This document shows, piece after piece, positions 2,771 through 43,514 of a stretch of 64,000 nucleotides of DNA. A program made the position numbers and the translations under genes. Source of the stretch: a virus. Taxonomy: Duplodnaviria > Caudoviricetes. The stretch's first letter is position 1. Each line of letters begins with the position of its first letter. The DNA is taken from IMG/VR virus record IMGVR_UViG_3300028048_003198, positions 5,903 to 69,902 of that record, one strand, 5' to 3'. The notes under the pieces were generated by a model. It ran no database searches. It saw nothing but the letters and a program-made list of their open reading frames with translations, and was not told the origin of the DNA.

Positions 2771-2897
2771 CAAAATGGCAACGACGCTTTGCAATTAGCG
2801 AATTTTCAGCGATTTATGGCGAAAAAATTTGGTCATATCAAAAATTTTTTGTAACTTTACACATTATTTAAGAAAACCATTAAAGACTGAGTTTATG
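2771..2897 (+). promoter_or_regulatory. promoter cassette copy A (partial, most diverged)
   Basis: AAAATGGCAACGACGCTTTGCAATTAGC...AAAAAATTTGGTCA...TAACTTTACAC...AAACCATTAAAG...ATG of the initiator. Confidence 0.8.
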
Positions 2898-4046
2898 GCG
2901 AAACAAAAGTATTTCTCGCATGACAGTAACGCCCGTAATGACGAAAAAATCGTCAATATGCGTATGCAGATGGGCGCTGGTGCGTACGCCATATATTTCA
3001 TGATTCTTGAGCGCTTACGAGAGACCGAGGACTTCATGGGTATCAAAGATTATAACGCTATAGCCTTTGATCTCCGTGTCGATGCCAAGGACGTAAAGCG
3101 TGTGATTGAGGACTTCGGGTTATTCCAGTTTACCGAAGATGGCAAGCTGTTCTACTCCGAGAGTTTCCGCAATCGTATGCGTATCATGGAAGATAAGCGT
3201 ATGAAGCAGGTCGAAGCCGGAAAACGTACGGCAGAGAAACGATGGGTAGAGGGGCGCAAAGCAGAGGCAGGCGATGTAACTAACCTACCGCAAAAAGGTA
3301 ACTCAAAGAAACTTAACCTACGGAAAAGCGGTAACTCACCTATAACTAACCTATCGAAAGGCGGTAACTTACCTACCGAAAGTGATGGTGTTGTAACTAA
3401 CCTATCAAAAAGCGGTAACTTACCTATAATCGAGTGTGCGGAAGAGGGAGAAAATGTAACTAACCTACCGAAATCGGGTAACTTACCTATAGCGTCCAAA
3501 AAAAGAAAAGAACCAAAAGAAAAAGATAAAAAGGAAAATTTAATTATTGTAGAGTCTCCATCTAAAGAAGAAGACTCTATGTCCCTCACCCCTAAAGGAG
3601 TGACGGACGATGCACCTCTGTCAAGTCCATCCTTATTTGGAGAGATGCCGGAAGCAGAAAAGGATGTAGATTATGCCGAGTTGATCAAGTTCTGGAATAC
3701 CGTCACTAAAGGCGTGTTCGGCTACCTGAGAAACATCGAGAATAAGCGCAGACAGATGACGCGCGCACGAATACGCGAGAATGGCTACGATCAATTCCTG
3801 CAAGCCATCCGGAATGCTGCAGCATCCGAGTTCCTGCACAGCGCTCCGTGGTTCAGTTATGACTGGATGATCTGCCCGAATAACTTTGTAAAAGTGTTGG
3901 AAGATAAGTATGGAAAACGCGAAAGAACTGAAAGCACAGGGGCAAGCGGACTGGGACCTTCGGGACTGGAAGCCGCAAACTCTATCCCAATGGGTGGAAA
4001 CCAAGGGGGGAATGCAAAACCTGTTAGAAAACGAGTGTATGATTAA
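2895..4046 (+). CDS. replication initiator, DUF4373 (Lin1244/Lin1753-like) N-terminal domain
   Basis: MAKQKYFSHDSNARNDEKI...GAGAYAIYFMILERL; C-terminal WFSYDWMICPNNFVKVLEDKY; internal iterons; followed by a loader ATPase. The start is 2895, after the shared leader motif, not the upstream TTG. Confidence 0.85.
   Translation: MAKQKYFSHDSNARNDEKIVNMRMQMGAGAYAIYFMILERLRETEDFMGIKDYNAIAFDLRVDAKDVKRVIEDFGLFQFTEDGKLFYSESFRNRMRIMEDKRMKQVEAGKRTAEKRWVEGRKAEAGDVTNLPQKGNSKKLNLRKSGNSPITNLSKGGNLPTESDGVVTNLSKSGNLPIIECAEEGENVTNLPKSGNLPIASKKRKEPKEKDKKENLIIVESPSKEEDSMSLTPKGVTDDAPLSSPSLFGEMPEAEKDVDYAELIKFWNTVTKGVFGYLRNIENKRRQMTRARIRENGYDQFLQAIRNAAASEFLHSAPWFSYDWMICPNNFVKVLEDKYGKRERTESTGASGLGPSGLEAANSIPMGGNQGGNAKPVRKRVYD
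3276..3490 (+). repeat. iteron array, probable replication origin inside the initiator gene
   Basis: About five imperfect copies of TAACTAACCTAYCGAAA(A)GCGGTAACTYACCTA, starting near 3276, 3312, 3342, 3393 and 3456. Confidence 0.8.
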
Positions 4047-4704: not shown

Positions 4705-4937
4705 GTTTTATTGTGCCCGAACGGTGTTTGATAATCAAGCAAAAATGATTTGCAGTTACTACCAAGATAGCGCGAAAAGATGGAGAGCAAGCCGCTCGAT
4801 GTTTGGGCCATCCATCATCGTAGCGAATGCGCACGCGGCGTTCGAAGCATGCTGCGCGTGGCTCGGCACTCATGACGTGAACGTTGACCCGGATGGTAAC
4901 GGCAACACAATAGTAACCATTAAAGAATTGAGAAATT

Positions 4938-5447
4938 ATGGCAGTAAGAAACATTGAAGCCATCGAACGTAAGACGGAACAGATGGCAAAAGAAAAGCAG
5001 GGCTTAGCAGATATGCGCAGAGCCTCTCTGAAAGTTTATCTGGATTCTATCAAAGCTAAAAGTCAGGACATGACTGATGCTGTAGATACGTATGAGGAAT
5101 TGCTTAAGAGAAAAATCCCATGCGAGTTTCAATCAGGAACGAGAATTAGATTTGCACCGTTACCATATAACGGAGGCCACAAGATTAAGATTGAAGTTGG
5201 GGAAGAAAGCGGTTACGCATCGTTTGCTTACATTCCAAAAGAAGAATCGTTTATGACATCGACGAAAAGCTCAGATACGAAATTTGAAAGTATAGACGAC
5301 CTGAGCGACTCCGATATCAGTAGTAAATTCCACAGCGACGGATCATGGAAAGAAAGAAGCGATAATATGCGTCAGGCTATCAAAGAGTTTGCGGAAGGCA
5401 TAGAGGTCTTCCTGAATGATTTCTTCAATTACGTAGAACACCTGTAG
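4938..5447 (+). CDS. hypothetical protein
   Basis: 169-aa ORF in operon orientation. Confidence 0.65.
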   Translation: MAVRNIEAIERKTEQMAKEKQGLADMRRASLKVYLDSIKAKSQDMTDAVDTYEELLKRKIPCEFQSGTRIRFAPLPYNGGHKIKIEVGEESGYASFAYIPKEESFMTSTKSSDTKFESIDDLSDSDISSKFHSDGSWKERSDNMRQAIKEFAEGIEVFLNDFFNYVEHL

Positions 5448-9021: not shown

Positions 9022-9210
9022 CAAAATCTATGCCAAACTTGGACCGTCAGGAATGCGATTTTCGTGCGATTTTCAAAATGGCAACGACGCTTTGCAATTA
9101 GCACTTTTTCAGCATTTTATGCGGAAAAAATTTGGTCAAATGAAAAAAAATGACTAACTTTACACTGTCGTTAAGACAAATAACAAACCATTAAAAATTT
9201 GAGTTTTATG
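9019..9210 (+). promoter_or_regulatory. promoter cassette copy B
   Basis: TTTG 9131-9134, 20-nt spacer, TAACTTTA 9155-9162; ~105-nt core identical to copies D and E. Confidence 0.9.
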
Positions 9211-9522
9211 AGTGTAAAAAAGTTAACAGAGGCGCAGAAACAGTACCTGCAAGGCAATGCGAAAGCATGGAAGCAATTGACGTTCGAGAATGAGCATACG
9301 GAAGTTCGCATCCGGATTGCTCACTGCATGAATGTCTTCACAGGTGGCGAAGCTGCTACGCTGGTCACGATCTACGAAGCGATCAATAGAGAGCAAGAGC
9401 GTAGGAATAATCTTACGAGAATGCTGAAAAACCTCCGTGATGCAACCGATCAGGAGTTGTATGAGTTCATCAAAGAACACTACGGAGAGGATGTTTTCAA
9501 GCAGATTCACGAGTGCTTATAA
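9208..9522 (+). CDS. hypothetical protein, first gene of island 1
   Basis: ATG follows the cassette leader. Confidence 0.7.
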   Translation: MSVKKLTEAQKQYLQGNAKAWKQLTFENEHTEVRIRIAHCMNVFTGGEAATLVTIYEAINREQERRNNLTRMLKNLRDATDQELYEFIKEHYGEDVFKQIHECL

Positions 9523-9542
9523 ACCATTAAAGATATCGAGTT

Positions 9543-11192
9543 ATGGAAAGAGACCCTGAAAAAATCGTTAACGAAGTAGTCCGCATCCTATCGGACGAAC
9601 AGTTAAGCAAGTCGTGGGATAGTACCAACGGCGAGATGTGCGAGGGCTTCGGTAAGTTAGGTGTTATGTCACCGCTGAACCGAATGGCTTTCGTCAAAGT
9701 GTACGGCGAAGATTACACGAGAGCGTTTGAACTGGACGCACGTGAGATCATCCGGCAAAGAGAAGAAGCGTTCGCTAATTCCGAGTATTCAAAGCATGCG
9801 AAGCAAGCAGATGCGTTCAATGGCATCCCGAAAGAGGGTGACTTTGTATGGTGCAGCAACTCCGGCATGAAACGTGATGATGGCGGTGCCATCGGAGAGA
9901 TAGAAGACCTGATCCGCTATAAAGAGTACGATGGTCGTCTATGTAAGGTAGTAAAGGTGATCAATGTTGCCGATCCGTATTTCTTGGATTCCGGAAAGGC
10001 TGATCTATTGGTACGTGAGTTCGGCCTGCAAAGTATGGGCGGCAGTTGTAGTGAAGACTTGCCCGACGACGCAGACATCTACAACCTGACGCAAGAGCAA
10101 CTGCGTACGTTCTACACGAAAGGCGTGGCGGTCGTTTGGCAAGATAGCGAATGCTTCCGTTGGTATCTGATAGATACGGAGGGCTATGATTATTCCAGAT
10201 ACATCTATATGCCTGCTGATTGGCGCGAAATGTATAAGAGCCAAGTACAGCAAATCGAGCATCGGATCGAGATGGAAGAAGCCAAGGCTAAAGAAGAAGC
10301 CGAACTCGCAAAGCAGAAACGCCTGAACGAGTATCAAGCACGCTCCGCAAAGTGGTTGCCGCTCATGGTGGATGTCAATCCGCTGTATGACGAAGAGCGC
10401 AATGCGTTTAATGAACTGCGCAAAGCCGGATATAAGAAAGGCTGTCCGGAATACGAAACGCTCAAGGCTGCGAAGCGCAAACTGCTGAACGCTCGTAAGA
10501 AAAACATCATGTCGATGGTGAAAGCTGTGTTCCCGGAAATCAAGTTTTCGCTTACTACCGAAGATGGCGGCTATGAGTTTGATCTGTATTGGAATGATGG
10601 TCCGACTCAAGAGCAGTTGAATGACGCGCTTGATCTCACACTATTCGAGCACGGAAGAGAGTGCTTCGATGGCTTCGATGATAGCACGTACTATCAGAGC
10701 AGCGAGTTTTGTGAGTTCGCAGATTTCACGATGGGTAAAGGTCACACGCGAGGAGAAGTTTGCTTGCACCGATCTACAACGCCGGAATATCGTGAGCAGA
10801 TAGAGCGTTTGCTACGCGATGCACACGGCATCACCGCTGAGAATTACGAAAGCAAGGTTGCCGAGATATGTGCACTGCCAGGCGTAGAACGATTCCACGT
10901 GTACCATTATAACACGTTCAATGATGTCGTTGAGTATGTCGCTCGCCTCTGGAATATCTACATCACAGAAGATCTTCCGGTCGAGAAGATTAAAGCCGAG
11001 CCGATCCAAGGCAAGTACGGAATTGTCGAGTATTCCGATAAGGCAATCATAGTGACTGGAGATACGAAGCCGATCCGTAAGTTATTGAGTGAACTCGGTG
11101 GGCGTTTTCATCCGAAATTGAGCGTCGGAGCCGGATGGATATTCTCGAAGAAGAAAGAGGCACAAGTTCGTAAACTGCTAAATCTTGAATAG
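9543..11192 (+). CDS. multidomain accessory protein with an LPD29-like domain
   Basis: KKNIMSMVKAVFPEIKFSL...YWNDGPT pattern; C-terminal YSDKAIIVTGDTKPI...LGGRFHPKL..GAGWIFSKK module. Confidence 0.6.
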   Translation: MERDPEKIVNEVVRILSDEQLSKSWDSTNGEMCEGFGKLGVMSPLNRMAFVKVYGEDYTRAFELDAREIIRQREEAFANSEYSKHAKQADAFNGIPKEGDFVWCSNSGMKRDDGGAIGEIEDLIRYKEYDGRLCKVVKVINVADPYFLDSGKADLLVREFGLQSMGGSCSEDLPDDADIYNLTQEQLRTFYTKGVAVVWQDSECFRWYLIDTEGYDYSRYIYMPADWREMYKSQVQQIEHRIEMEEAKAKEEAELAKQKRLNEYQARSAKWLPLMVDVNPLYDEERNAFNELRKAGYKKGCPEYETLKAAKRKLLNARKKNIMSMVKAVFPEIKFSLTTEDGGYEFDLYWNDGPTQEQLNDALDLTLFEHGRECFDGFDDSTYYQSSEFCEFADFTMGKGHTRGEVCLHRSTTPEYREQIERLLRDAHGITAENYESKVAEICALPGVERFHVYHYNTFNDVVEYVARLWNIYITEDLPVEKIKAEPIQGKYGIVEYSDKAIIVTGDTKPIRKLLSELGGRFHPKLSVGAGWIFSKKKEAQVRKLLNLE

Positions 11193-14008: not shown

Positions 14009-14198
14009 TGACAAAAACTATGCCAAATAGAGTGTTATAACGTGCTAATTATGAGCGATTTATAAAATGGCAACGACACTTTGCAATTTACGATTTTTAA
14101 GCATTTTTATGCGAAAAAATTTGGTCAAATGAAAAAAAATGACTAACTTTACACTGTCGTTAAGATAAATAATAAACCATTAAAAATTGAGAGTTATG
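14009..14198 (+). promoter_or_regulatory. promoter cassette copy C
   Basis: Same layout; identical over AAAAAATTTGGTCAAATGAAAAAAAATGACTAACTTTACACTGTCGTTAAGA. Confidence 0.9.
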
Positions 14199-16336
14199 AC
14201 AGTATTCACGCACAACGGAAAGACGGTATTTGTAAGCCGATACGTAGGTAGCAGATCATTCAAGTTAGAGTTGGTTTACTACAATCAGGAATTAACGGAA
14301 TATCCGACAGGACTGAAAATATGTGCTTGCCGGAATGCAAGTTTTTGCTCTTCAACAAAGAGAGCCGCCAAGATGATAAATGATTTCTTGGGTGCCGAAG
14401 TAGCTGTTGCTCTCAATTCGATCTCGGTTATTAAAAAGAAGAACTTATAAATCACCGGAACTATGTTTGGAAAACGCATTTTCTCAATAGACAATAAAGA
14501 AGAGAGCAGAGACGGCCGCAATATCCGGGTTATGCTCACAATAGCGAGAGATAACGGATTGGACGGTTTCTCACTCCCTCTTGTGAACAAAGAGGAGTTG
14601 ACAGAACTCCGTGATAGGATCGACGAGTATTTGAAAACCATTAAAGAATAGAGTTATGTGTAATTTGTATTTGATCGGAGAAAACACGGAAGCCGAGTTC
14701 GCTGCTATGTTTGAGCAGGGCGGTTTTGAGCTGTTTAATCTATCGTTCAACGTAGCCATCGGCAAACGTGACGATGAGAAAGTGAAAGCGTGGACGCAGA
14801 GCGAGCAGGCCCTGAAAGAGATGTCAGAACGCTTCGGAAAGAAAGTCAAGGCTATTCAGCAGCGCCGGACGTACTATTGGCTTCCGCTGGATAGTTTCAA
14901 TCAGCCGAACGGCAACGTAGAGGAGATATCCCTGTTCCCGTCGGACTACGAGGATTTGAAGAACTGCAATATGCAGGACAGTTATCCTTATTGGTGGATT
15001 TACGATGATTACCATGCAGCGCTTGAGCGTGCGCATTCTTGATCCCTTACGACTATGGCAAAGAAGCAACCGAAACAACAGAAAGAGCACATGCAGATAG
15101 CCGTGCTGTGTTACGATTCCTCAGAGGTAGATATTATTGATGTCTGCATCGAGAATGATTACGATATCATCGAGAATTGGCTAATTGAGCATTGCCAGTA
15201 CAATCTGGATCAGATTAGCTGGATGAGTGCGTCGAGTATCAAAGTTAACAACCTAACGCCGGAGGACTTCGGCAACTAAAGAAAGGAGAAGAATATGGAA
15301 GAAAAAGTATTTGTAGTTACAAACCTGTCACCAGATCTTGGCAAGGCGATCATCGTAGGTCTCTATGATTCGTGCCGTGCTGCTATCCAAGCGGCATACG
15401 ATGAGTATTGCAACGTGTGCAAGGAGATATTTCACATGGAGCCTGCGCCGTTCAATCCGGAATCAAAGGTTTGTGTCGCGCAGAACGCAGGTGTTCGTGT
15501 GGTTGTCTCTGTAGCCGATCTCCCGATGCGTAGAACGGCAGAGTTCCCAGTAGCGTACGTAACGCGCGAGGATGTTGCTCATCGCGGTTTCTCGACAGAG
15601 GGTCTGACCGATGAGCGTATGCAGCAAGTCGCAAGCCGTATGTCGAAATACATCTCCGATGAGATGGAATACTGGTATGCGCTCGATGCTGCTTGTGAGT
15701 ATATTGGTATATCACGAAAAGACGACGATCAAGATGGCGACGAATGAGCAAAAGATGCGGATTCCGAACCGCACTCTTGAGGAGGTTCTGCAGCACTTCT
15801 TTGGATGCAAGAAGCCGTTTGCTAAAAATGGCGATTTTACGGCCCAAGGAAGCAAGGCATACGGTAAACTTGTGGAGCTGTTGTACAACGTCGGCACTCT
15901 CTCGGAAACCGACATGAATGACATAATTGAGTCGCTGGATTATATAGTAACAGAAAAGTATTAGTGAATATGGATTTCAGAGCAGATTCATCGAAACTGT
16001 TAGAGGTGAACAATCAGCAAGATAAGCAGTCGGCTTTCTTCGCTTGGTTTACCAAATGGGCCGAAACGCAGGATTATATCATATGCGTTGATAGTAATGG
16101 CGTACCTGAGTTTTTGGTTATCGACTACTGTGGCAGGACGACGTGTAAGTTTAATCAGAGAGATGGAGTTTTTTCCGTTAACCAATGCGTCTTTGACGAT
16201 TACAACCATGAGCAAGACGAATAGAAGATGCTGCGAATGCAGAAAGAGTGAGTGCTATGGATGGCACCACTGGGGATGCTCGAAGACCGGGGAACTTGTG
16301 GACGAGAATGATTGCTGCGAGGACTTCGATTCCTAA
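14196..16336 (+). CDS. eight small hypothetical genes of island 2 (14196-14450, 14463-14651, 14656-15042, 15055-15279, 15295-15747, ~15734-15964, 15964-16224, ~16208-16336)
   Basis: Tightly packed + strand ORFs downstream of cassette C. Confidence 0.6.
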
Positions 16337-16443
16337 CCTCCATCCAGATCACAAAGAAAGTGCGCTATAAGGCTACAAAATGATGCCAAAAGTGCGAAAT
16401 AATGACATGAAACCATCAAAAATGCAAAAAAGTTTGCTGAAAA

Positions 16444-16475
16444 TTTGCAGGAGTCAAAAAAAAGCAGTACCTTTG
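16444..16475 (+). promoter_or_regulatory. Bacteroidetes sigma70-type promoter driving the candidate sRNA
   Basis: TTTG 16444-16447, 20-nt spacer, TACCTTTG 16468-16475. Confidence 0.75.
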
Positions 16476-16479
16476 CACT

Positions 16480-16604
16480 CGAAATTTGATTATGGCACAT
16501 TCGTGCTAAGCGATATTCTATCGCAATCGCGTCTTCGCCGTAACTCATTTTTTAATGGTTTGGAGAGAATTTACCGCAGCGGCGGCAAAATTCTCTCTTT
16601 TTTT
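16480..16604 (+). ncRNA. candidate trans-acting antisense sRNA 1
   Basis: Own promoter, no + strand ORF beyond 5 codons, hairpin GCGAT-ATTCT-ATCGC, 23-nt segment (16539-16561) complementary to the shared leader motif, then an intrinsic terminator. Confidence 0.6.
16563..16604 (+). terminator. intrinsic terminator
   Basis: GAGAGAATTT/AAATTCTCTC 10-bp stem followed by T7. Confidence 0.85.
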
Positions 16605-16622
16605 GCACTTTTTTTGAAAAAT

Positions 16623-16655
16623 TGTTTGATATTCAAACATTTTTTTGTAACTTTG
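16623..16655 (+). promoter_or_regulatory. portal promoter with palindromic operator TGTTTGATATTCAAACA over the -33 element
   Basis: TTTG 16625-16628, 19-nt spacer, TAACTTTG 16648-16655; palindrome 16623-16639. Confidence 0.8.
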
Positions 16656-16681
16656 CAGCCGATTTATAAAAAACACGTGTT

Positions 16682-18109
16682 ATGAACCTGCGAGATATCT
16701 TTGAAAATAATCTTGAAGAGCAGAAGAAAATCGAGCTTCTCAAGAAGAAATCAGTCTTGGTCCCTGACTGGAGTAAGTTGCGCCGTAGTTATGATCCGGA
16801 GAAGCACAAGATCGTCCGTGACTATAGAGGTCGACCGAACCGAACGCTCGAAGATGGTACGATCGAGAATGCAACGCGATACCGCTTCGGCTTGGAGAAA
16901 CTGTTAGTGTCGCGTATGGCTGGATTCATGTTCACCATCCCAGTGAAGCGTGTGTACCCGGAATTGCCGAAAGAAGCAACAGAGGATCAGAGAAAACGCC
17001 GCAGTGAGATCATTCATGCTATCGAGCAGGTGTACAAACTCGCCCGCTTGGATAACGAGAATCTGAACCGCGCAAAGCAGTTCTTTGCTTCATGCGAGAT
17101 GTTCACGCTCTGGTATACGACCGGATCGCCGCACTCGAAATACGGCTTCCCGTCGCAGCACAAGTTCAAGTGCAAGACCTACTCGCCGATGGATAACAAT
17201 ACGAAGCTGTTCCCGCTGTTCGATGACACCGGAGATATGATTGCTATGTCTATCGAGTATCGGAATGTAGAGAACTCTCAATCTGTCACGTATTTCGAGA
17301 CGTACACAAAGGATAAGCACTATAAGTGGCATACGACGCAGGACGGATGGGTTGCAGAAGAGCCTAAGGATATCAGCAGCTACGGAAAGATACCGGGTGT
17401 GTATATGTACAGAACCGAGCCGCTGTTTGGCTCCGATCTGGACTACATTCGTCAGACACTTGAGTATAAGATGTCCGAGAATAGCGACACGATTTCCGAT
17501 AACGCCGCTCCGATCTTAGCCACGGCTGGTAAGATCACCGGACTTGAGAAGCGAAGCGATTCGAAGCGAGTCGTATCATGCGAGAATGGCGGTAAGGTCG
17601 AGTACGTTACATGGGATCAGGGTGTCGAATCTACCAAGTTCCACTTCGAGCAAATGCTGGATATGTATTTCATGCTTGCTCAGCTGCCGAACATATCCGC
17701 ATCGAAGATGATGAACCTGAGCAACGTCAGCTACGAGTCCCGTCAGTTGCTGTTTGCCGATGCACACATGAAAGTTGGTCAAGAGTCCGGCGATTGGTTG
17801 GAGTTCCTTGATCGCGAGTTTTCGCTGGTAAAGCAGTTCCTGAAAGAAGCGCATCAGGAATGGGCTAAAGATATCGACGCTATCGACTGCGATCACGTGA
17901 TCACGCCGTATATTCAGGATGATAAGAAAGCAAGTATCGAGACGCTGATGCGTGCTAACGGTGATAAGCCGTTGATGAGTCAGAAGACCGCTATTCAGCA
18001 CCTTGGTATGTCTGATGATGCCGATGCAGAGATCGCGCAGATACAAGCAGAGGAAGCAGCACAACCTGCGCAGAATGATGATCTGAGCAATATGTACATA
18101 GCGAAATAG
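16682..18109 (+). CDS. portal protein (SPP1 gp6-like)
   Basis: 475 aa, acidic C-terminal tail, typical position before MuF; family resemblance judged by eye. Confidence 0.8.
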   Translation: MNLRDIFENNLEEQKKIELLKKKSVLVPDWSKLRRSYDPEKHKIVRDYRGRPNRTLEDGTIENATRYRFGLEKLLVSRMAGFMFTIPVKRVYPELPKEATEDQRKRRSEIIHAIEQVYKLARLDNENLNRAKQFFASCEMFTLWYTTGSPHSKYGFPSQHKFKCKTYSPMDNNTKLFPLFDDTGDMIAMSIEYRNVENSQSVTYFETYTKDKHYKWHTTQDGWVAEEPKDISSYGKIPGVYMYRTEPLFGSDLDYIRQTLEYKMSENSDTISDNAAPILATAGKITGLEKRSDSKRVVSCENGGKVEYVTWDQGVESTKFHFEQMLDMYFMLAQLPNISASKMMNLSNVSYESRQLLFADAHMKVGQESGDWLEFLDREFSLVKQFLKEAHQEWAKDIDAIDCDHVITPYIQDDKKASIETLMRANGDKPLMSQKTAIQHLGMSDDADAEIAQIQAEEAAQPAQNDDLSNMYIAK

Positions 18110-18111
18110 TT

Positions 18112-20712
18112 ATGGCTAAGCCTCGCATACCGAACCAGAAGAAGCAGTATCGAATGCTTGATAGACGCTTGGCGGCTTATATGGCCGCCGTGCGTCGTAT
18201 TTATGCGGAACTGAGTAGCGAGGCAGCGAAGATAGTCACATCCTCCGGCTACGATGGCAAGAAGCCGTTTTCGTGGCGCGACTACCCGAATACGAAAGCA
18301 CGTATGCGTAAGTTGCAGGAACGTTTCGTGAGTCAGTTGAGCGGCCTGATCATGTCTGGCACATCTGATGAGTGGAAGCGAAGCAACCTGCAGCAGGATT
18401 TGATCGTTAACCGAGTGCTCAAGGCGTACCATACGAGCAGAGATGATGGAAAGAATGAGAAATACTATCGTAATAACGAAGAAGCACTCAAGGCATTCCA
18501 GACGCGCAAAGAGCAAGGAATGAATATCTCTAATAAGTTATGGGACCAGTCTCAAGCATATCGAGAGGAGTTGCAGGATGTGATATCGGTGGCTATTGAG
18601 CGCGGAACTGATGCTGTCACGTTGAGTAAGCAGATCAGTAAGTATCTGCGAGATTTTCCATCTATGCAACGTGACTACAAAGATAAGTACGGCCGTGCGT
18701 CAAAGGCGCAGAACTGCGAGTTCCGATCTATACGCCTGGCGCGTTCTGAAATCAATATGGCTTACCGGAGTGCCGAGCAGGAACGATGGCGCCAACTCGA
18801 TTTTGTCGTTGGCTATGAGATTAAGATGTCTGGTGCACATCCGGCACACGATGTATGTGACAGTCTCGCAGGCAAATATCCGAAAGATTTTCGGTGGGTA
18901 GGATGGCACCCGAATTGCATGTGTTACGAAATCCCGATCCTTAAAACAGAGGACGAGTTTTACGGAGAATCGAAGCAAGTTCAGCCCGAGATAAAAGGTA
19001 AGGTTGATAGCGAAAAGGTCGAAAGCAAACTTGAGGGGAAGTCGTTTATGTTTGAAACGTCGGAGGTGTTCAAATACGAACTCCATCCGGAAGACCGCGA
19101 GGCTGTAGAGAGTTTTGCAGATCGTCTCGGTAGGTTCAATCCGAAGGGCGAGGTTATGAGTTTCAGTATAGACGATGTTGTACAGACGCAACAGTATGTC
19201 GGTACAAAAAACGTGATCCAGATAGCGCAGTCTATCGAGAAAGATGGTTTGCAGGATAATCCTACTGGTATCAAGGTTGGCGATAAGGTGTTTATCGTTG
19301 ATGGTCACAACCGCATAGCCGCTATGCGCCTTGGTGGCTCGAATACGTTTGATATTCGCGTCGTAGAGGTCAGCGAGGAAGAATGGAAAGCTGCAGGCGG
19401 TCAAGTTCCGGCCGGAGGATTCGAGAGCAAGCAGCGCATAGGATCCTCATCCATAAATGAGGTGCATGATGTGCCGCAGGAGTTTAAGGACTGGTGTACC
19501 GAAAACTGGCAGCGCATCGAAAACTCGCGACATAATGATACGCTTCCGTATTTCCTGTCTGATAATAGGCAGTACGTTAAAGAACAGTTAACGATAGAGC
19601 GTGCGACCGAATTGCGCCATGCTAATCGTGATGAGAAAGCAATCCTGCACGCATGGGAGAATAGACAGGCACTAAAACAGAATTACGGTGTTTCTCTTCC
19701 GAACCTGCGTCGTAAGGCTGAGTATTGGGGAGTTGATACGTCGGCGCTTGATGAGTATGTATATTCCGGTCGTTTGCATCTTGACGAATATGGAGAGGAT
19801 GAGAGATTGGATGCGCTCATGACAAATATAGCAGCCGAAGTAAGCGTTAAGGCTGAGACTGCAAGAAGTCGCTTCGATAGAGTTCGCAAACTCAGAACCG
19901 AACTAAATGCCGCTAAGGGAGCATATCACTTTGATGATATTATTGCCGAATTGGATAAATATCTTGCAGAGCACAATCCGAGAGCAGGAGAAATGGTTTA
20001 CGGCTCAAGGTATGAAGCGACAAAGGTTGGTGATATTAGTGAGTTTATTCGTCAGCAGCAGCAACGCATTGAAAAGAGGCGCGATGTGCTTCATAGTGTC
20101 AACGAGTCTCTTATATCGTCGAAACTTGGTGTAGAGAAAATGGTTCCTATGAGTTTCGAGGAAGCAGATGAGTTGCGTGGTAATCCGATGTTCTTATCTG
20201 GACTTGACGAGTACACATGTAACTGCCAAAGTTGCGTAGTCGCTAACGAATTGAGAAGACGTGGGTATGATGTGGAGGCAAAGCCTAATTATGCTATTCC
20301 GCACAGTCCGCAATTTATTTTGTCGTTCGATACTCGAAGCATATGGGTAGACAGAAAGACTGGATTACCGCCAGTTGCAGAAAGGATATCCTTGAGGGGA
20401 ATTGATGATGTTGAACTTGCCAACGCCATCATGGATAAGATTAAAACGCAAGGTCGGTATAATCTGTCGGTCACATGGGAGAAACCGAATAAGAACGGCG
20501 AGAAGTATGGTCACGTGTTTACGATCGAGAGAAAACGTAATGGCACGATTTTTGCATATGATCCACAGACAGGCGAAATGGATAGAGTTGATTACTCGCT
20601 TCTGCTTGAATATCTGCTTCAAGTCGACAGAAGCCGCTCTGTTGTTTTGTACCGAATAGACAACTGCGATGTCAATACGCAGTATTTGGATAAAATTGTA
20701 AAGAAGAAATAA
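18112..20712 (+). CDS. MuF/SPP1 gp7-like head morphogenesis protein fused to a ParB/Srx-like domain and a papain-fold toxin domain
   Basis: RLARSEINMAY...CDSLAGKYPK.F.WVGWHPNCMC (MuF); VFIVDGHNRIAA (ParB-like); NCQSCVVANELRRRGYDVEA...GHVF (Tox-PL-like). Confidence 0.8.
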   Translation: MAKPRIPNQKKQYRMLDRRLAAYMAAVRRIYAELSSEAAKIVTSSGYDGKKPFSWRDYPNTKARMRKLQERFVSQLSGLIMSGTSDEWKRSNLQQDLIVNRVLKAYHTSRDDGKNEKYYRNNEEALKAFQTRKEQGMNISNKLWDQSQAYREELQDVISVAIERGTDAVTLSKQISKYLRDFPSMQRDYKDKYGRASKAQNCEFRSIRLARSEINMAYRSAEQERWRQLDFVVGYEIKMSGAHPAHDVCDSLAGKYPKDFRWVGWHPNCMCYEIPILKTEDEFYGESKQVQPEIKGKVDSEKVESKLEGKSFMFETSEVFKYELHPEDREAVESFADRLGRFNPKGEVMSFSIDDVVQTQQYVGTKNVIQIAQSIEKDGLQDNPTGIKVGDKVFIVDGHNRIAAMRLGGSNTFDIRVVEVSEEEWKAAGGQVPAGGFESKQRIGSSSINEVHDVPQEFKDWCTENWQRIENSRHNDTLPYFLSDNRQYVKEQLTIERATELRHANRDEKAILHAWENRQALKQNYGVSLPNLRRKAEYWGVDTSALDEYVYSGRLHLDEYGEDERLDALMTNIAAEVSVKAETARSRFDRVRKLRTELNAAKGAYHFDDIIAELDKYLAEHNPRAGEMVYGSRYEATKVGDISEFIRQQQQRIEKRRDVLHSVNESLISSKLGVEKMVPMSFEEADELRGNPMFLSGLDEYTCNCQSCVVANELRRRGYDVEAKPNYAIPHSPQFILSFDTRSIWVDRKTGLPPVAERISLRGIDDVELANAIMDKIKTQGRYNLSVTWEKPNKNGEKYGHVFTIERKRNGTIFAYDPQTGEMDRVDYSLLLEYLLQVDRSRSVVLYRIDNCDVNTQYLDKIVKKK

Positions 20713-21046: not shown

Positions 21047-21237
21047 TGACAAAATCTATGCCAAACTTGGACCGTCAGGAATGCGATTTTTGGCCGTTTT
21101 TCAAAATGGCAACGACGCTTTGCAATTAGCACTTTTTCAGCATTTTATGCGGAAAAAATTTGGTCAAATGAAAAAAAATGACTAACTTTACACTGTCGTT
21201 AAGATAAATAATAAACCATTAAAAATAGAGAGTTATG
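21047..21237 (+). promoter_or_regulatory. promoter cassette copy D
   Basis: Near-identical to copy B, including the 5' part TGACAAAATCTATGCCAAACTTGGACCGTCAGGAATGCGATTTT. Confidence 0.9.
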
Positions 21238-22432
21238 CAAGCAATTCAATTGACAGTAGGTCAGGTAATCAAAGCTAAAAACGCCATCTGGCCGCAAGCT
21301 CCGGCAAAGGAGTACACCATCATTCAAGTAGCCGAGGAGATTGATCCGCAGATGTATTCTGACGGACTGCGTGGGTTGGCATGGGCTAAAGATAATGAGA
21401 CAGACGAACTCGCAGCGCTGACAGTTGACGAGGAGGACACCAAGAATTGGTATCGCGATGATTCGTTCTTTGACAACGGTTACCAAATCGCCTATCCGGA
21501 AGATATCGAGAAATACGAAATCTATCAGGATGAAGATGACATCTGGAAAGTAAGAATGCTGTAAGAAAGGAGGATCGATATATGTTTATAGTTCAATTCG
21601 ACTGCAAAGATGGTTCGCAGATGTTCTACGGAACGCTGAAAGGTGATTTCTTCGGAATACGCCACACGGAACACGCAACCAGATTCGAGACGAAGAAAGC
21701 GGCAGCTAAAGCAGCCGATGAGATTATGGCAAGTCCGCTCGGTAGTGGATTTGTTAGTTATGCAATAATTGAGAAAGGAGAATAAAGATGAGAATCAGTA
21801 AAGAAACATTAGAAGCGCTCCAGGCGCAGGGAATAAAAGTACGGTGGTATCCGGAAGAGACGTTCAAGGAGCATTGGGATAATTGCTACGAACAGCAGCG
21901 GAAAGGATATATCGACTATTATAAAGATACAGTAGGCGATAGATTAGGCGACTTGTTTAAGACAATGGCTGACCTCGAAAAACGAGCAGAGGAACACGCC
22001 GAGATGACAACAAACAGCAAGGCTCAAAATCTGTATGACGCTCCTGTCCTCTACGTTAGTTACGGGGATCGTACATTTGCAAAGAAAGAGAATGTCAAAA
22101 GCAGGGAGATAACAGTTGAGTACGTCCAGAAATTGGTGGAGCGCGATAAGAAAGCCTTCTCTGGTGCATACGGCGACTTTGCACGTAAGATGGAGCAGCT
22201 GCTGAAACGTAACGGCATCGGACGTAACCTCTGCATCTATCCGACCACTTATGGAATAGGCGTTTGGCTGTTCTACAACTTCTCCGCCGATGAGTGCATC
22301 AAGCGTGTGGACTCCATCTTAAACGAACAGGGCATTGAGTTCCGCAACGAGTACTCCGATGCACAATGGGTATGGCGGTACATCGTCAGCAAAGCAGAAG
22401 CCAATAGATTACGAATAGACAAAGCAGCATGA
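21235..22432 (+). CDS. three hypothetical genes of island 3 (21235-21564, 21582-21785, 21788-22432)
   Basis: ORFs downstream of cassette D. Confidence 0.65.
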
Positions 22433-30753: not shown

Positions 30754-30944
30754 TGACAAAAACCATGCCAGAAAGTGTGATAAAAAGTAGCGATTTTTGT
30801 GCGTTTTTCAAAATGGCAACGACGCTTTGCAATTAGCACTTTTTCAGCATTTTATGCGGAAAAAATTTGGTCAAATGAAAAAAAATGACTAACTTTACAC
30901 TGTCGTTAAGATAATAAAATAAACCATTAAAAATTGAAGTTATG
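30754..30944 (+). promoter_or_regulatory. promoter cassette copy E
   Basis: Core identical to B and D; begins 3 nt after the terL stop. Confidence 0.9.
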
Positions 30945-31581
30945 AAGAGTATTCTTGAGCAATTAAAGGCCGCTAAAGAGGTAGCAGAGAGCGAGATCAA
31001 CGCTATGAAATCTGCTCGTAGCGAATACGAAGAGTTCGAAGAGAATAATCAGTACCCAGTAGATGCAGACGTTGAAGTTCGTCTGGCTTATATTGATAAG
31101 CGTGAGTCGTTGCAAAAAGCAGCTGCGCACGCCGAGAAGCGCGCACGCTGTAAGGTTACATCTTACGGCGATCTGATTGGTGTGAATGTTCAGCCAAATC
31201 AGGTTGATTGCGAACGCAAGATCATCGGAATGTTCGGAACCCTGAATTATTATTACGATGAGATAGCATATCGCGTAAGCCGAATAGTTGATACGTATAA
31301 CGAGTATAACCATTAAGAAGCGAGTTATGAAGAAGATTCACGAACACGTTCATTATAATGCGCCGAACTTGTTTATCGCCAAGTATGTAGCGAAGACGTG
31401 GCGCAAGAAAGCCTTGCGTTATGCTAAAATCCACATCCGGAGAGGTCGGTATGTGAGCGCCCACATCGAAATTCTGGGTGATCTGCTTCGCTTCATCTCA
31501 TGCGGTATTGAAGAGCAGCAACGTACTGCGTTAAGAGAAAAAGTATTAAAGTCAATAAGCCATGAATCAAGAAAAGTATGA
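30942..31581 (+). CDS. two hypothetical genes opening island 4 (30942-31316, 31327-31581)
   Basis: Both are preceded by the AACCATTAA...GTTATG leader. Confidence 0.65.
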
Positions 31582-32101
31582 AAGCCTGGTATCTCGCATC
31601 CTTAAACTACAAAAGCTTGTAGAGCAAGGAGAGGCCGGAGAGGCAGCGAACGCGCGAGCTGCCATCGAAACTATTGTTAATCGCTACGGGTTGTCTCTCG
31701 ACGAAATACTACAGGACGAGGGAAAGAAGAATTACTACTGGACGCTCAAAACTGCGAGAGAAAAGCACCTGTGGAGGCAATGCCTTGGAACTGTGCTTAA
31801 CACATGGAATCCGAGAATAGGTGAGAAAGGAAACATGGTGGTAGCGGAGTTGACGAAATTGCAGTACGCGGAGTTCAAAGACATGTTTGATTTCCATAGA
31901 TCAAATATGGAACATGAGTATAAGGAGATGATCAGTACGTTCGAGAGCGCATATTTCGGGAAGCACAATATCTTTCCTGTTGATGGCGTAGATGAGCATA
32001 CTGATAACAAGATGGATCGTGCCAAGCTGCTGCGTATCATCCACATGCAGCAGGCTATGGAAAATAAGTCGTATCGCAAATCAATCACAGCAGGAGAATA
32101 A
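31562..32101 (+). CDS. DUF2786-like protein
   Basis: ILKLQKLVEQGEAGEAANARAAI..IVNRYGL N-terminus. Confidence 0.6.
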   Translation: MNQEKYESLVSRILKLQKLVEQGEAGEAANARAAIETIVNRYGLSLDEILQDEGKKNYYWTLKTAREKHLWRQCLGTVLNTWNPRIGEKGNMVVAELTKLQYAEFKDMFDFHRSNMEHEYKEMISTFESAYFGKHNIFPVDGVDEHTDNKMDRAKLLRIIHMQQAMENKSYRKSITAGE

Positions 32102-32102
32102 T

Positions 32103-32561
32103 ATGGAAGAAAACAGTTTTGAAATGAATGGCTTGCTGAATGCCGCATGCCAAGAGGAATACAAGTACGCTCAAAGGCAAGGCTTCGGAAAGCAGCATAT
32201 CGGCACGAAACTCATGTTAGTCGTGACCGAACTATCGGAGGCGCTTGAAGCTGATCGCTGCGGCCGACATGCAGATGTTGAGAGATTTAATAAGAATCTC
32301 CCGATGATGCTCCGGAACTTGCGTAAAGCGGATTTGCAGGAACGCGATGAGGATAAGATCAAAGCCTACATCAAGGCAAAAGAGGAGTTCAAGAAGAATT
32401 TCGAGAAGCACATCAAAGATACTTTCGAAGATGAGATCGCAGATGCTTTCATGCGTCTCATGGATTTGTGCGGCGAGTACGGAATAGATATCGAGCGCCA
32501 TATTATGATGAAAGCGATGTATAACGAAATGCGCCCTCCGAAACACGGCAAGGCGTACTAA
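32103..32561 (+). CDS. MazG-like all-alpha NTP pyrophosphohydrolase
   Basis: LMLVVTELSEALEADR...EDEIADAFMRLMDL...KAMYNEMRPPKHGK. Confidence 0.85.
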   Translation: MEENSFEMNGLLNAACQEEYKYAQRQGFGKQHIGTKLMLVVTELSEALEADRCGRHADVERFNKNLPMMLRNLRKADLQERDEDKIKAYIKAKEEFKKNFEKHIKDTFEDEIADAFMRLMDLCGEYGIDIERHIMMKAMYNEMRPPKHGKAY

Positions 32562-32573
32562 TTGGAATAGGAT

Positions 32574-33194
32574 ATGCAGAAGATCATGTTTAATGAACAG
32601 TTCGGCTTGCAGCAAGCAACGTTCGATCGCCTAAAAACAATGACGCGAAGAGTTGTTCCAGAGAAGACAATGGATGCGTGGTACGATTACGCAGATTGGG
32701 TGGCGTCGGTTGGCATGCCTCAAGGAGTTCCGTGTTATACTGAGAGTATGGAGGAGTTCTTGATCAATAGAGCACCATACAAGGTTGGCGAGATAGTGGC
32801 AATCGCGCAAAGCTATCGCGAATTGAGTAGCGATGATAATCCTCTCTTAATTCTCGGTGATGAGATTGATTATTTAGGAATGAGCATCCTGAAAAGCGCC
32901 AAAGAAACTGCAGGATGGAATAATAAGATGTTTGTTAAAGCAGAGCATATGCCTCATCACATCCGCATCGTGCATATCAAGGTAGAAGCGCTTGGAGCCA
33001 TCTCTTATCATGACTGCTTGAGAGAGGGAATTATCTATACCGGAAGCGGCTACACGTGTTATCAGCAAGGCGTGCTGCCTTTGTTCCGAAATCCGTATGC
33101 TGCGTTCAAGGCGCTCATCGACAAACTGAATCGTCGCGGATTCTTCGAGAGCAATCCGATAGTGTATGCGTATCAGTACGAATTAGTTGATTGA
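32574..33194 (+). CDS. ASCH/PUA-like phage protein
   Basis: KTMTRR, PYKVGEIVAI, I.HIKVEALGAIS..DCLREGI, NPIVYAY. Confidence 0.65.
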   Translation: MQKIMFNEQFGLQQATFDRLKTMTRRVVPEKTMDAWYDYADWVASVGMPQGVPCYTESMEEFLINRAPYKVGEIVAIAQSYRELSSDDNPLLILGDEIDYLGMSILKSAKETAGWNNKMFVKAEHMPHHIRIVHIKVEALGAISYHDCLREGIIYTGSGYTCYQQGVLPLFRNPYAAFKALIDKLNRRGFFESNPIVYAYQYELVD

Positions 33195-33208
33195 AAGGAG
33201 GAAATGAT

Positions 33209-35033
33209 ATGTCAAAAGTAAGAAGAACAAGGTCGATTACCTATCGAGTTAAACTGTCTGATCGTGAGGTAAGAGCAATTCGCGAGTTACTGCGTCCGTC
33301 GCTGGACTGCCGCAGGGCGTATAGTGCTATTCGCCAAGCGCAGAAATTCTCCTCTTTAGAGCAGAGTGAGACGAATTCTATTCGCAAGGCGTACTATAAG
33401 CATCTATATGACTTGAAGATGCGCAAGGTTGAGTTCTATAAAGAAAGGATAGAACGTAGTAAAAGTGGAATAATAAATATCGAAAATAATCATGGATGAG
33501 AAACGTAGAAAGGAGTTGCTTAAACTCGCGCTTGATCTGCAAGCGAAATTCAATGCAATGACCACAGACGAGGTGGTCGCAGTACTCAGTAAGGCACTCG
33601 GTGACAACAGTCCGCATGTCGAGGCACCGTACCGCATGATCTGGCAAGTAGCCGATGCAGTGAACGCCGAAAAGGTGGTCATCAGAGAGAAGAAGAAACA
33701 GCCCGGTAAGATAGAGATTCAGTTTTGTGCTTGCAAGGGCGGTGCGCTGAACCTCATCCATCCCAAAGAAGTAAAGGAGGAACTGGCATGATTTACGTAG
33801 TAACAGGCATTATAGTGTTCGCAGCAATACTCGCTGTGTTGAGTGGTAAAACTCCGCATGGAGATAATCAGCGCGATATCGAGGCCGCTCGTAGAAAGTA
33901 CGAGAGAAACTGCCAAGAACTAATTCGTGAACAGGAAGCAAGGAAAGGAAAGTGATATGCACCCGATCTGGTTTGTAGTGATAGGACTCGTAGGCATAGC
34001 CGTTTACACCATCATAGCATATTGCGTAGTGTTTGCAGTATGGTACGTAGTAGAGTGGTTCAAGGATCGCCTGAGTCACGAAAAACAGTCAAAGAAAGGA
34101 GTCAAGAGATGACAGCAGAACAGATAAGACGAAATGCAGAAAATTATATTGACGAGAATACGCAAGGTGTCGTCATTGATGATAACATCCGGAATTTTCT
34201 GTTAGACACTTACATAGCTGGAGCCGAAAGCCGCGACAAAGAGATTGTGCAACTCCATCAACGTATAGAAAACCTCGTAGCGATTGCGAGGGAACAAAGA
34301 AAGTCTTGGTTTAGTGCCAAAGAGAATAAGCCGGAGGCTGTTGAGCAGAAAGAGTTTGGCGCACGCAAACTATCGAAGCAAGTACTTGCTATGTATGAAG
34401 ATGGCAAGTGCCACGTAGTTCGATACGATTACGATTGCCAATGCTGGAGATGGGCTAACAGCTACGGCCAGATGTTTGAACCGAAGATGTGGCGATACAT
34501 CGATATTCCGGAAGGAGGTATAAAATGAGTTGTGCATTTTGTCAACATTATTATGACTGCGAGATGTCGAAACTCCGCTTCGGCTTCTGCGGTCCCCTGA
34601 TATCGTATCTACAACCAAAATCAAAGAAGGAGGAAGAAGTATGAACGCAACAGAACTGATGCTTGGCGACTGGGTGCTGATGCGTGGAACACCAGTACAA
34701 GTAAGAGCAATCGGAGTCAATACGATCCGATTTTCCGATATGCTTATTACGGAACCGCTCGAAAATATAGAGCCTATCCCGCTCACTCCGGAAATACTGG
34801 AGCAGAACGGCTTCGTACCTATTCGACAAAATGCCGTAGAGCCGTATTACTGGCAGTATTTCGATAAAAAAGATGGTAGTATAGTGAATGCCTTCCGAAG
34901 AATCTACAGAGGTCTATGGATTGAGTGTAGCAATGCAACTACCGAAGCAAGCACAAATAAGCAATGCGAGTTTGTTCACGAACTCCAGCACGTAATCAAG
35001 AATACCGAAATAGAAATGGAGGTGGTATTATGA
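33209..35033 (+). CDS. cluster of small hypothetical genes (two with N-terminal TM segments at ~33788 and ~33957)
   Basis: Abutting + strand ORFs. Confidence 0.55.
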
Positions 35034-35142
35034 AAGTCTGCTTGGTACAAAGATGCCCGATAAATCACCACGGATTATGCGTCGGAGATAGAGACGCGAT
35101 GATAGAGAGTGGTAATTGTGAAATCCTAAAACAGAAAAAGCC

Positions 35143-35550
35143 ATGAATAGAGTAATTAAGTTCAGAGGAAGACTGAAAAGAACAAAGAAGTGGATGTACG
35201 GCGATCTTGCACACGTCCAAGGCGAGCCTGTTATTCAGATAGACGTATCTGCTGAAAATCGTCGTACAATCGGAATGAATGTAGAGCCTGATTCTGTAGG
35301 CCAATTCGTCGGACTACATGATAAGAATGGTCGAGAAATATATGAGGGCGATATCCTGCGCGTAGTGGCATATAATGGAGAGTATGACTATACTACACAG
35401 GTGAGTACCGACGGCAACTACGAAGTAGATGTGTGCGGCCAGGATTATGATTGTACGCACATATCGTACCTTTCGCCATGCTATGACGATGACTGCGAAA
35501 TCGAGGTTATAGGCAATATCTATGATAATCCAGAACTGATAAAGAAATGA
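35143..35550 (+). CDS. YopX-family protein
   Basis: IKFRG...WMYGDL...GQFVGLHDKNGREIYEGDI...EVIGNIYDNPEL. Confidence 0.9.
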   Translation: MNRVIKFRGRLKRTKKWMYGDLAHVQGEPVIQIDVSAENRRTIGMNVEPDSVGQFVGLHDKNGREIYEGDILRVVAYNGEYDYTTQVSTDGNYEVDVCGQDYDCTHISYLSPCYDDDCEIEVIGNIYDNPELIKK

Positions 35551-35996
35551 GCACTATTAGGACGATTAAATTCAGAGGCAAGAATGGAGTCGCATGGTTC
35601 AAGGGTGACTTGGAGTATTGCCCAAAAGTAGGCGTAGCGTGCATCCATACGTATAGCAAGGATGGAGTTTATGACAGATCATATCAAGTCAATCCTGATA
35701 CCATCGGTCAGTTTACAGGCTTGCTCGATATCCACGGCAAAGAGATATACGAGGGCGACATCGTACAGAGAATTTACCGAATGGAAGAAGGACGTGGCAA
35801 GAATAAACACGAGGTGCTGCGGCCGGTTGGCAACTGCAAGCCAAAGGTCATCAGTTTCCGAATGGGAGCGTTCGGCTACGTCAATTTCAAAGAGAGAGAA
35901 TATGTAGAAGAAGAGTGGCTTCCGATCCTCGATGAAGAGTGCGAGGTGTTAGGAAACATCTTCGACAATCCGGAAATAGAATGTGGAGGAGATTGA
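35547..35996 (+). CDS. YopX-family protein, tandem paralogue
   Basis: IKFRGK...GQFTGLLDIHGKEIYEGDI...EVLGNIFDNPE. Confidence 0.9.
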   Translation: MSTIRTIKFRGKNGVAWFKGDLEYCPKVGVACIHTYSKDGVYDRSYQVNPDTIGQFTGLLDIHGKEIYEGDIVQRIYRMEEGRGKNKHEVLRPVGNCKPKVISFRMGAFGYVNFKEREYVEEEWLPILDEECEVLGNIFDNPEIECGGD

Positions 35997-36629
35997 TATG
36001 GCAGCAGTATATAGAATCAAAGTAAGCAATCCTTACGACACTTGGATGGTTGAAATTGTTGCCGATGACGAGCGTACTGCTCGATTGCAAGCTGCACACG
36101 CTCATTGCTCATCAATCAAAGGTGCAAAATTGGTAGAGGTTGTTGATAGCGACTATCATGGAGAATTTTACACGAAAGGAGAAAGGATATGAATACGTAC
36201 TATTTGAAGAAGTTCCGCAAGGCGGCAAAGAAACACGTCAAAGTGGAGGTGTACAGAGATGGCTACGATGGGTTTCTGTGCATTGCGACTAACGACCAGA
36301 CGCGAACGATCACAAAGAAGATAGTTAATCTAATCCCGAATAGGGTTATATGCTGGCTATTCCCATATGGTCTGCTTTGCAGGGTTAAGTTATATTACGC
36401 CAGAGTAAATGCGTGTTTTGGCTTGTATGAAAATCCGCTATCCCCTGCGTGCTTGAGTGGCACAAAGCGCGAAACGCAAGTACAAGCCCTGCAAGATGCT
36501 CGCAGGTGGTACGTAAAGATGCTTATCAGAGACGAGCGCACTCGACGCGATATCTATAAACAAAATATGGAACGTGTAGAACGTAAGCGCGAGATGAAGA
36601 AAGATTTATACGAATTAAACCGATTATAA
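35983..36629 (+). CDS. two hypothetical genes (35983-36192, 36189-36629)
   Basis: Overlapping + strand ORFs. Confidence 0.55.
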
Positions 36630-36632
36630 GTT

Positions 36633-37487: not shown

Positions 37488-37499
37488 GTATGAGAGATA

Positions 37500-37584
37500 A
37501 ACTCACGCTGTGACAGCGCGGTACGTAACTAACGATTTTTAATGGTGGATAGGGTAGCAAATTTGTGCTATCCTATCTGTTTTT
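37500..37584 (+). ncRNA. candidate sibling antisense sRNA 2 (possibly 3'-UTR derived)
   Basis: Hairpin CGCTG-TGA-CAGCG, then CGTAACTAACGATTTTTAATGGT (37524-37546), then terminator; same layout as sRNA 1; no dedicated promoter seen. Confidence 0.45.
37548..37584 (+). terminator. intrinsic terminator
   Basis: GATAGGGTAGCA/TGCTATCCTATC 12-bp stem (one G-U) followed by TGTTTTTG. Confidence 0.8.
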
Positions 37585-37622
37585 GTGAAAAAATGAAGAA
37601 AATTTGAAAAAAATGCAAAAAA

Positions 37623-43440: not shown

Positions 43441-43514
43441 CACAGCGGTAGTGCGGGTGGTGAACTTGATTGGAATCCACAGGTCGCAGGTTCGAATCCT
43501 GCACCTACTCCCCA
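43431..43514 (+). pseudogene. tRNA-like element with an expanded (14-16 nt) anticodon loop
   Basis: AGTAGGT/ACCTACT acceptor, GCAC-AGCGGTA-GTGC D arm, 22 nt identical to the tRNA-Met variable and T arm. Confidence 0.65.

Follow-up and report, generated by a model that had tools for sequence, protein, structure and literature searches.

A predicted small RNA of a temperate Bacteroidales phage is complementary to a translation-start leader shared by the phage's own genes

How might a phage address many of its own, widely scattered genes at once? The question is raised by a stretch of DNA in a phage of rumen or gut Bacteroidales, in which a first-pass annotation had noticed a promoter, a terminator and, directly before the latter, the reverse complement of a motif that precedes dispersed genes. 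The element, here called E1, is flanked by a block of small genes (14196-16336) and the portal gene (16682-18109, plus strand; phrog_64, E 4.5e-49). Coordinates refer to the window, that is, the whole stretch of 64,000 nt that was analysed, which makes up most of a 69.9-kb IMG/VR provirus record and carries nearly all of its genes on the plus strand. The phage is temperate, since an integrase (449 aa) and an HTH repressor-like gene (143 aa) lie on the minus strand at the left end of the record (L035:1-2038 region, left of the window). They face a regulator gene on the plus strand (phrog_10300), an arrangement that resembles the immunity layout of lambda. In the window itself, ARAGORN calls a tRNA-Ser with anticodon ACT at 43431-43512 (an unmodified A34 anticodon is unusual), and the minor head protein (SPP1 gp7-like, 18112-20712) has extra domains that match the PHROG of Bxa ADP-ribosyltransferase and ParB-like families.

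The promoters of the phage itself provide the setting. The portal gene has its own late promoter, P2 (16624-16657, plus strand), located between the E1 terminator and the portal gene, with a palindromic operator overlapping its -33 element. This palindrome (GTTTGA, 3 bases, TCAAAC) marks four late promoters (16624, 23880, 37624 and 54299), overlapping the -33 of each. These promoters stand at the head of the structural and packaging blocks, and the palindrome probably serves a late regulator as its operator. Further copies occur at 25367, 37701 and 37769, two of them downstream of the 37624 promoter. The promoters of a repeated cassette (2852, 9155, 14144, 21183 and 30890) all read TAACTTTA where the consensus ends in TTTG, whereas the promoter of E1 and the late promoters follow the consensus, which suggests that the cassette promoters form a separately regulated class.

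The motif to which E1 is complementary is a leader of two boxes: a core, AACCATTAAA, with flanking A residues and, after 2-6 variable bases, GAGTTATG, which contains the start codon. The core finds 16 matches at up to 2 mismatches, against 1.7 expected by chance. The leader stands before nine plus-strand genes of the window and before two more in the 5.9 kb of the record to its left, with targets scattered along ~34 kb of the record, from those 5.9 kb to window position 31329. All eight genes counted in the first-pass annotation stand; the number rises to nine with a weaker copy at 4914, plus the two outside the window. The replication initiator, already placed among them, is identified by its match to a replication initiation protein family (gene 2895-4046, leader 2874-2897, plus strand; phrog_2562, E 7e-24). 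None of the targets is structural, and the others have no assigned function. Five of the copies in the window end the promoter cassette with its non-consensus -7 element and the remaining ones stand alone in operons, so the motif belongs to the start signal and not merely to the repeat. The A run of the leader lies ~10-14 nt upstream of the AUG (the first box covers the A-rich region ~10-15 nt upstream), where adenines promote translation in Bacteroidota (PMC7366714); masking it is therefore a plausible way to block initiation. A function of the leader as an enhancer pairing with 16S rRNA was rejected, its complementarity to the first 1228 nt of a host-family 16S being no better than that of shuffled leaders. 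Outside the phage contig, the host MAG shows no enrichment of the core (4 matches vs 13 for the reversed control).

E1 is predicted to be an RNA of ~120-125 nt (16480-16605, plus strand), its 5' end being placed from the promoter (+/-3 nt) and its 3' end from a T run. The predicted fold has an energy of -39.4 kcal/mol (z = -5.0 vs dinucleotide shuffles), and the folds of two homologues have z values of -3.5 and -5.1. The 3' end is an intrinsic terminator (16562-16605, plus strand), formed by an 11-bp outer and a 4-bp inner stem (16562-16597) and a run of 8 T to 16605, in agreement with the terminator first delimited at 16563-16604. It is kept in three phages with one G-U change and in plus-strand orientation only: on the minus strand no T run follows the hairpin. 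Directly 5' of the terminator stem, as annotated at first pass, is the anti-leader (16539-16561, plus strand), unique in the window and the sole complete antisense copy of the leader on its minus strand. Within it, the seed (16548-16561) is predicted to be single-stranded, with unpaired probabilities mostly >=0.7 over 16552-16561 and of ~0.4-0.6 at 16549-16551. The box that would cover the AUG is instead predicted to be paired inside E1, in a conserved stem. This stem closes a 5' structured domain (16487-16547, plus strand; RNAalifold consensus of three homologues), in which a 5' stretch resembling the second box of the leader (16487-16496) pairs with the box antisense to GAGTTATG (16537-16547) around two small hairpins. 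No Rfam family matches E1 at gathering score or at E up to 5, and a tRNA check ruled out a tRNA.

The predicted promoter of E1, P1 (16444-16475, plus strand), consists of a -33 TTTG (16444-16447), an A-rich spacer of 20 nt and a -7 element TACCTTTG (16468-16475). This bears out the consensus promoter that had been claimed at this place, as the Bacteroides sigma-A consensus is TTTG / TAnnTTTG (PMC7366714) and P1 agrees with it. The similarity to host promoters, the strongest of the new lines of evidence, spans the entire 42-nt architecture, beyond the two hexamers. In a BLAST search with 16440-16690 as the query against 401 genomes from the family to which the MAG with a related phage belongs, 16440-16485 matches a host promoter in 313 of the 401 at 88-93% over ~42 nt; most matches cover query positions 1-45, often at several sites per genome, and a minority the P2 part (~query 160-247). 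At eight of 11 host loci checked, a tRNA gene starts no more than ~60 nt downstream of the P1-type promoter. P1 lacks the spacer motif found in the cassette promoters as well as the palindromic late operator, and it is nearly invariant in two related phages, L001 and L053. By its sequence, then, P1 is a near copy of a host promoter of the stable-RNA (tRNA gene) type. Lacking the phage operator and the cassette motif, it should be expressed constitutively, lysogens included, which points to constitutive rather than timed expression of E1. A host stable-RNA promoter with a strong terminator 120 nt further on is most simply the gene for an abundant stable RNA made by the unmodified host polymerase, and the phage very probably makes a small RNA of ~120 bases from P1.

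The host architecture is itself worth describing: TTTGCA, an A-rich spacer ending in GCAG and then TACCTTTGCA (host loci L172-L190). It is ~90% conserved and present in many copies per genome throughout one Bacteroidales family, where it precedes tRNA genes and also a recurring 5' sequence with no Rfam match (L173, L175-L177), which may be an undescribed stable RNA of the host. At the host loci that have a P1-type promoter and no tRNA, no Rfam family matched. A pile-up over 16440-16485 in two metagenome runs, at up to ~1500-fold contig depth, represents the generic host promoter. Over 15000-18500, the metatranscriptome run X1 yields eight short contigs of low depth, none of which delimits E1; one of them (16347-16505) spans P1 from upstream instead of starting there and may be DNA. 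The runs X2 and X3 yield contigs of an L001-like variant over the same interval.

Portal-based scans of viral, metagenome and genome collections recovered two independent relatives with E1, whose portal is 66% identical: L001, an IMG/VR provirus (same contig as L036), and L053, a 67-kb contig of a Paludibacteraceae MAG. Both have the complete E1 unit in the corresponding position. Scanned for as an exact pattern, the 5' domain of E1 turned up in the L001 contig only, and BLAST of the 401 host-family genomes found E1 only in the MAG of L053; the phage GenBank collection held no relative, and the loci picked up by a degenerate anti-leader pattern, at least ~80, are unrelated or due to chance. 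Identity to the window in the two phages is 86% and 81% for the block that runs from P1 to the portal ATG, compared with 71% and 70% for the portal gene, 50% for third codon positions and 54-59% for the 300 nt upstream of P1. The block exceeds the portal gene, silent sites and upstream DNA and is therefore under purifying selection. The anti-leader is invariant in the three phages save for one spacer base and an A/G difference at 16540, and so is the leader core. Covariation, proposed early on as a check in related phages, is present as a single compensatory pair in the inner hairpin, from only three homologues and with a leader core that does not vary. The difference at 16540 preserves pairing (U-A or U-G) inside E1 and also opposite the U of the target AUG, while it turns a minus-strand ATG into ACG in two of the three phages; this fits an RNA that is read from the plus strand.

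The same comparison decides on coding potential. The region had been described as ~120 nt devoid of a plus-strand ORF, and this needs amending, since an ORF of 101 aa (16380-16685) spans it; the ORF is not conserved, with several stops in L053 and frame-shifted segments in L001, and was rejected as a gene, so that the region remains non-coding as described. Translation from the minus strand (16333-16548, 71 aa) had been named as a finding that would refute the small-RNA reading, and no such gene is supported. This ORF has no ATG in L001, where an alternative ATG would give 16 codons, and in L053 it has no ATG and all frames carry stops. PHROG and Pfam searches gave no match for either small ORF. 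Differences in the E1 block include indels of 1, 2 and 4 nt, and with lengths that are not multiples of 3 and stops on both strands in the relatives, E1 reads as non-coding. Purifying selection acting on a region with broken ORFs implies selection on a non-coding function, and E1 is likely a genuine, selected, non-coding RNA gene of the plus strand.

When the 24-nt anti-leader is slid along each of three phage genomes, the nine best plus-strand sites in the genome of the window, and 11 of the best 12, are gene starts with the AUG inside the duplex. This agrees with the prediction of the first-pass annotation that the leaders should rank top as targets, the eleven leader start regions all falling among the best twelve. 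Their duplexes range from -19.6 to -25.1 kcal/mol, against a genome-wide mean of -7.2 (sd 2.5). The other two genomes behave alike: all but one or two of their 9-13 best plus-strand sites are gene starts whose AUG is covered. On the minus strand only the element itself scores well. Mean duplex energies are -22 kcal/mol for E1 on the leaders and -8 on ~80 other ATG-ORF starts per genome, and shuffled seeds reach -6 on the leaders.

Cofolding of the full E1 RNA with 60-nt start regions, which includes the cost of opening the stem of E1, gives net values of -16 to -25 kcal/mol for the nine window leaders and of -1 to -14 for 14 control starts. The net value is -24.6 kcal/mol for the replication initiator. 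Among leaders that end a promoter cassette (all on the plus strand), it is -16.9 at 9185-9210 (gene 9208-9522), -15.8 at 14174-14198 (duplex -21.8; gene 14196-14450, the first of the operon that terminates at the E1 terminator), -16.6 at 21213-21237 (duplex -21.0; gene 21235-21564) and -17.9 at 30921-30944 (duplex -22.2; gene 30942-31316, the first of the operon that terminates at a second element, E2). Leaders within operons, likewise on the plus strand, have duplex and net values of -24.8 and -18.1 at 9521-9545 (gene 9543-11192), -25.1 and -18.4 at 14635-14658 (gene 14656-15042) and -24.7 and -22.6 at 31307-31329 (gene 31327-31581), and the weaker plus-strand copy at 4914-4940 (gene 4938-5447) has -21.2 and -18.2. 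In these models, the E1 seed is predicted to bind the start regions of every leader-bearing gene, the replication initiator among them, far more strongly than other starts. Pairing over the AUG had been claimed in the first annotation, and the AUG does lie inside the predicted duplex; the part of E1 that covers it is paired within E1 and not free.

The phage was at first thought to make one trans-acting RNA of this kind. E1 does have a predicted promoter and a terminator of its own, but a second anti-leader exists in E2 (37505-37586, plus strand), which comprises a small hairpin (37507-37519), the anti-leader (37524-37548) and a terminator (37549-37586). E2 lies in the 3' UTR of the gene 36633-37487, has no promoter of its own and is directly upstream of the operator-bearing late promoter at 37624. 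Its layout is kept in all three phages, with both boxes retained and their spacing changed; in the L053 contig a C-G pair of the small hairpin is replaced by U-A, a compensatory change. Predicted duplexes of E2 with the leaders (-16 to -19 kcal/mol) are weaker than those of E1 and clearly above background (-8 to -11 for other starts). Among the six copies (two elements in three phages), a minus-strand ATG occurs in the E1 of L001 only. Both elements close a cassette-driven operon, a layout that may reflect a cis or feedback role.

That position is the starting point for an account in which the anti-leaders are the 3' ends of cassette operons (14174-16605 and 30921-37586) and pair with leaders of the same mRNA, limiting translation or guiding processing, with no free small RNA. 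Each anti-leader directly precedes the terminator of such an operon, E2 lacks a promoter, and the contig of the RNA run that spans P1 from upstream would also fit, weakly, as it may be DNA. Against this, four of the six cassette operons end without an anti-leader, and the host tRNA-type promoter of E1, kept in three phages, makes sense only for a separate transcript. As the whole explanation a cis role is unlikely, although cis and trans roles can coexist. A marginally better, still unlikely, case can be made for a relic, in which the anti-leader is what remains, after decay, of the start region of a gene once divergent here or of an inverted cassette, and the block now only terminates the upstream operon before the late promoter. 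In relatives with 42% portal identity a real divergent gene is found here, with a minus-strand promoter, a hairpin and a related leader that mirror the layout of E1, and a terminator before the portal promoter occurs in a third group as well. A relic should decay, yet across phages with ~50% silent-site identity both boxes stay unchanged in E1 and are kept in E2; nor would it account for a tRNA-type promoter conserved 90 nt ahead of the terminator, or for the conservation of the stem joining the second box to a leader-like stretch. The related leader of these relatives has the core AACCAATTAAAA and lies in the 5' UTR of the divergent gene beside the portal; in three such genomes it occurs in 5-8 copies, without exception on the strand that does not carry the portal gene, and no antisense copy is present (relatives L002-L011, L015 and L016, ~3800-4000; records G403-G405). 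Since it persists there without an antisense copy, the leader predates the E1 RNA and has its own function. A divergent start region of this sort may be the ancestor of the E1 anti-leader, a descent that leaves its present conservation, the tRNA-type promoter and the sibling element unexplained.

The geometry of the locus (a promoter of constitutive type, a terminator ~120 nt on and then late structural genes) also recalls the PR'-tR' region of lambda, where antiterminator read-through of a short terminated RNA would lead to expression of the portal and head genes, and complementarity to the leaders would be secondary, as in StxS. This is improbable, because P2, with the operator common to four late promoters, stands between the terminator and the portal gene, and because E2 repeats the anti-leader and terminator with no promoter. 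No antiterminator was identified, the regulators seen in the phage being the HTH repressor and the phrog_10300 regulator. Least probable by far is a coding function, either of the plus-strand ORF, which overlaps the portal start by ATGA, or of the hydrophobic minus-strand ORF, which begins directly after a leader copy, as a type I toxin with E1 as its antitoxin. Both ORFs exist in the window, but both are broken or without a start codon in L001 and L053 and neither has a PHROG match; the toxin-antitoxin candidate was rejected, as the hydrophobic ORF occurs in the window only.

The reading preferred here, with a probability of roughly 0.6, is that E1 acts in trans as an anti-leader small RNA and represses the cassette-driven genes, the replication initiator among them, at the level of translation. 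From the sequence we infer that E1 is transcribed, in which direction it regulates and what its biological role may be. In the proposed sequence of events, the host RNA polymerase would transcribe E1 from its tRNA-gene-type promoter and stop at the strong intrinsic terminator. The single-stranded, U-rich seed (16548-16561), an exact complement of the core AACCATTAAA, would dock on a leader, and pairing would then spread to the box antisense to GAGTTATG, opening the closing stem of E1. The start codon would be covered and binding of the 30S subunit blocked, possibly with cleavage of the duplex. The genes affected would be ~eleven early or accessory ones; the replication initiator would be one of them, and so would the genes that come first in five promoter cassettes.

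With no phage operator in its promoter, E1 would be made in lysogens and, during an infection, from the very first minutes. An operator-less promoter of the tRNA type favours a constitutive threshold filter, damping leaky or early cassette expression, over the timed early-to-late switch that the first-pass annotation had proposed, and the promoterless E2, at the 3' end of another cassette operon, may add feedback. Findings that count against trans repression include the pairing of the AUG-covering box in the stem of E1 and the presence, in more distant relatives, of a similar leader without an antisense copy, which implies that the leader is conserved for reasons other than E1. The E1 terminator would also end the upstream cassette operon, and part of the conservation could serve termination alone. 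More tentatively, at a little under even odds, the phage may tag a class of genes with a private start leader and govern it by RNA alone, through E1, whose pirated tRNA-type promoter would tie it to stable-RNA synthesis and the growth state of the host, and through a 3'-UTR sibling that feeds back.

E1 shares with intergenic trans-acting sRNAs an intrinsic terminator, a non-coding sequence and a conserved seed, predicted to be accessible, against target starts. By analogy, the closest known counterpart is the c4 RNA of phages P1 and P7 (immI), in which exposed complementary stretches bind phage mRNA at the ribosome binding site and block translation (PMC12197685). Both would be phage-encoded small RNAs acting in trans on a translation start, and c4 is part of the control of temperate development. 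The c4 RNA acts on one transcript (ant/icd) of its own operon, from which it is processed. Unlike c4, E1 has a predicted tRNA-type promoter of its own, is complementary to a leader common to ~eleven dispersed genes and belongs to a host phylum without Shine-Dalgarno initiation; with this promoter and dispersed targets, it does not fit processing from a repressed operon. E1 is unrelated to c4 in sequence, and the C4 covariance model of Rfam has no match to it at gathering score or at E up to 5. Within the phylum, GibS of B. thetaiotaomicron represses by pairing of an extended single-stranded seed with target start regions, and binds in vitro without added protein (PMC7366714). It resembles E1 in its sigma-A promoter, intrinsic terminator and AU-rich single-stranded seed (PMC7366714). 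The two are not homologous: GibS is chromosomal and metabolic, with few targets and a seed at its 5' end, whereas E1 is viral, with a seed 5' of the terminator and one dedicated target motif.

Other systems share single features with the proposed E1 RNA. The C-rich (UCCC-type) seeds of RsaE, RNAIII and LhrC in Firmicutes are anti-Shine-Dalgarno mimics that hit host genes. E1 would resemble them in directing one seed against a common ribosome-binding motif, so that the start signal sets the regulon, but its motif is a leader specific to the phage, for which the host MAG shows no enrichment. RegA of T4 is a protein that sits on the translation start regions of many early phage mRNAs and so shuts them off, a job that E1 would do with RNA. 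The 6S RNA of lambda PR'-tR' and StxS are short terminated transcripts from a constitutive promoter upstream of late genes, and StxS is also a base-pairing sRNA. Unlike in lambda, an operator-bearing late promoter follows the E1 terminator, and antitermination is neither needed nor indicated.

To our knowledge, the study of post-transcriptional control has hardly begun in Bacteroidota and their phages. A literature search found no paper on a phage RNA aimed at a private leader common to many of the phage's own genes, and none of this kind for phages of Bacteroidota; the string 'Bacteroid' is absent from a 2025 review of phage small RNAs. If the proposed reading is true, the phage has a compact and testable regulon, defined purely by a common start signal and an antisense RNA. 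The portable leader and its matching RNA would then be a natural tool for tunable translation control in Bacteroidales, where tools based on Shine-Dalgarno sequences fail. It would also suggest a possible link by which the growth state of the host, through a tRNA-type promoter, may bear on the decision of the phage to express its replication genes.
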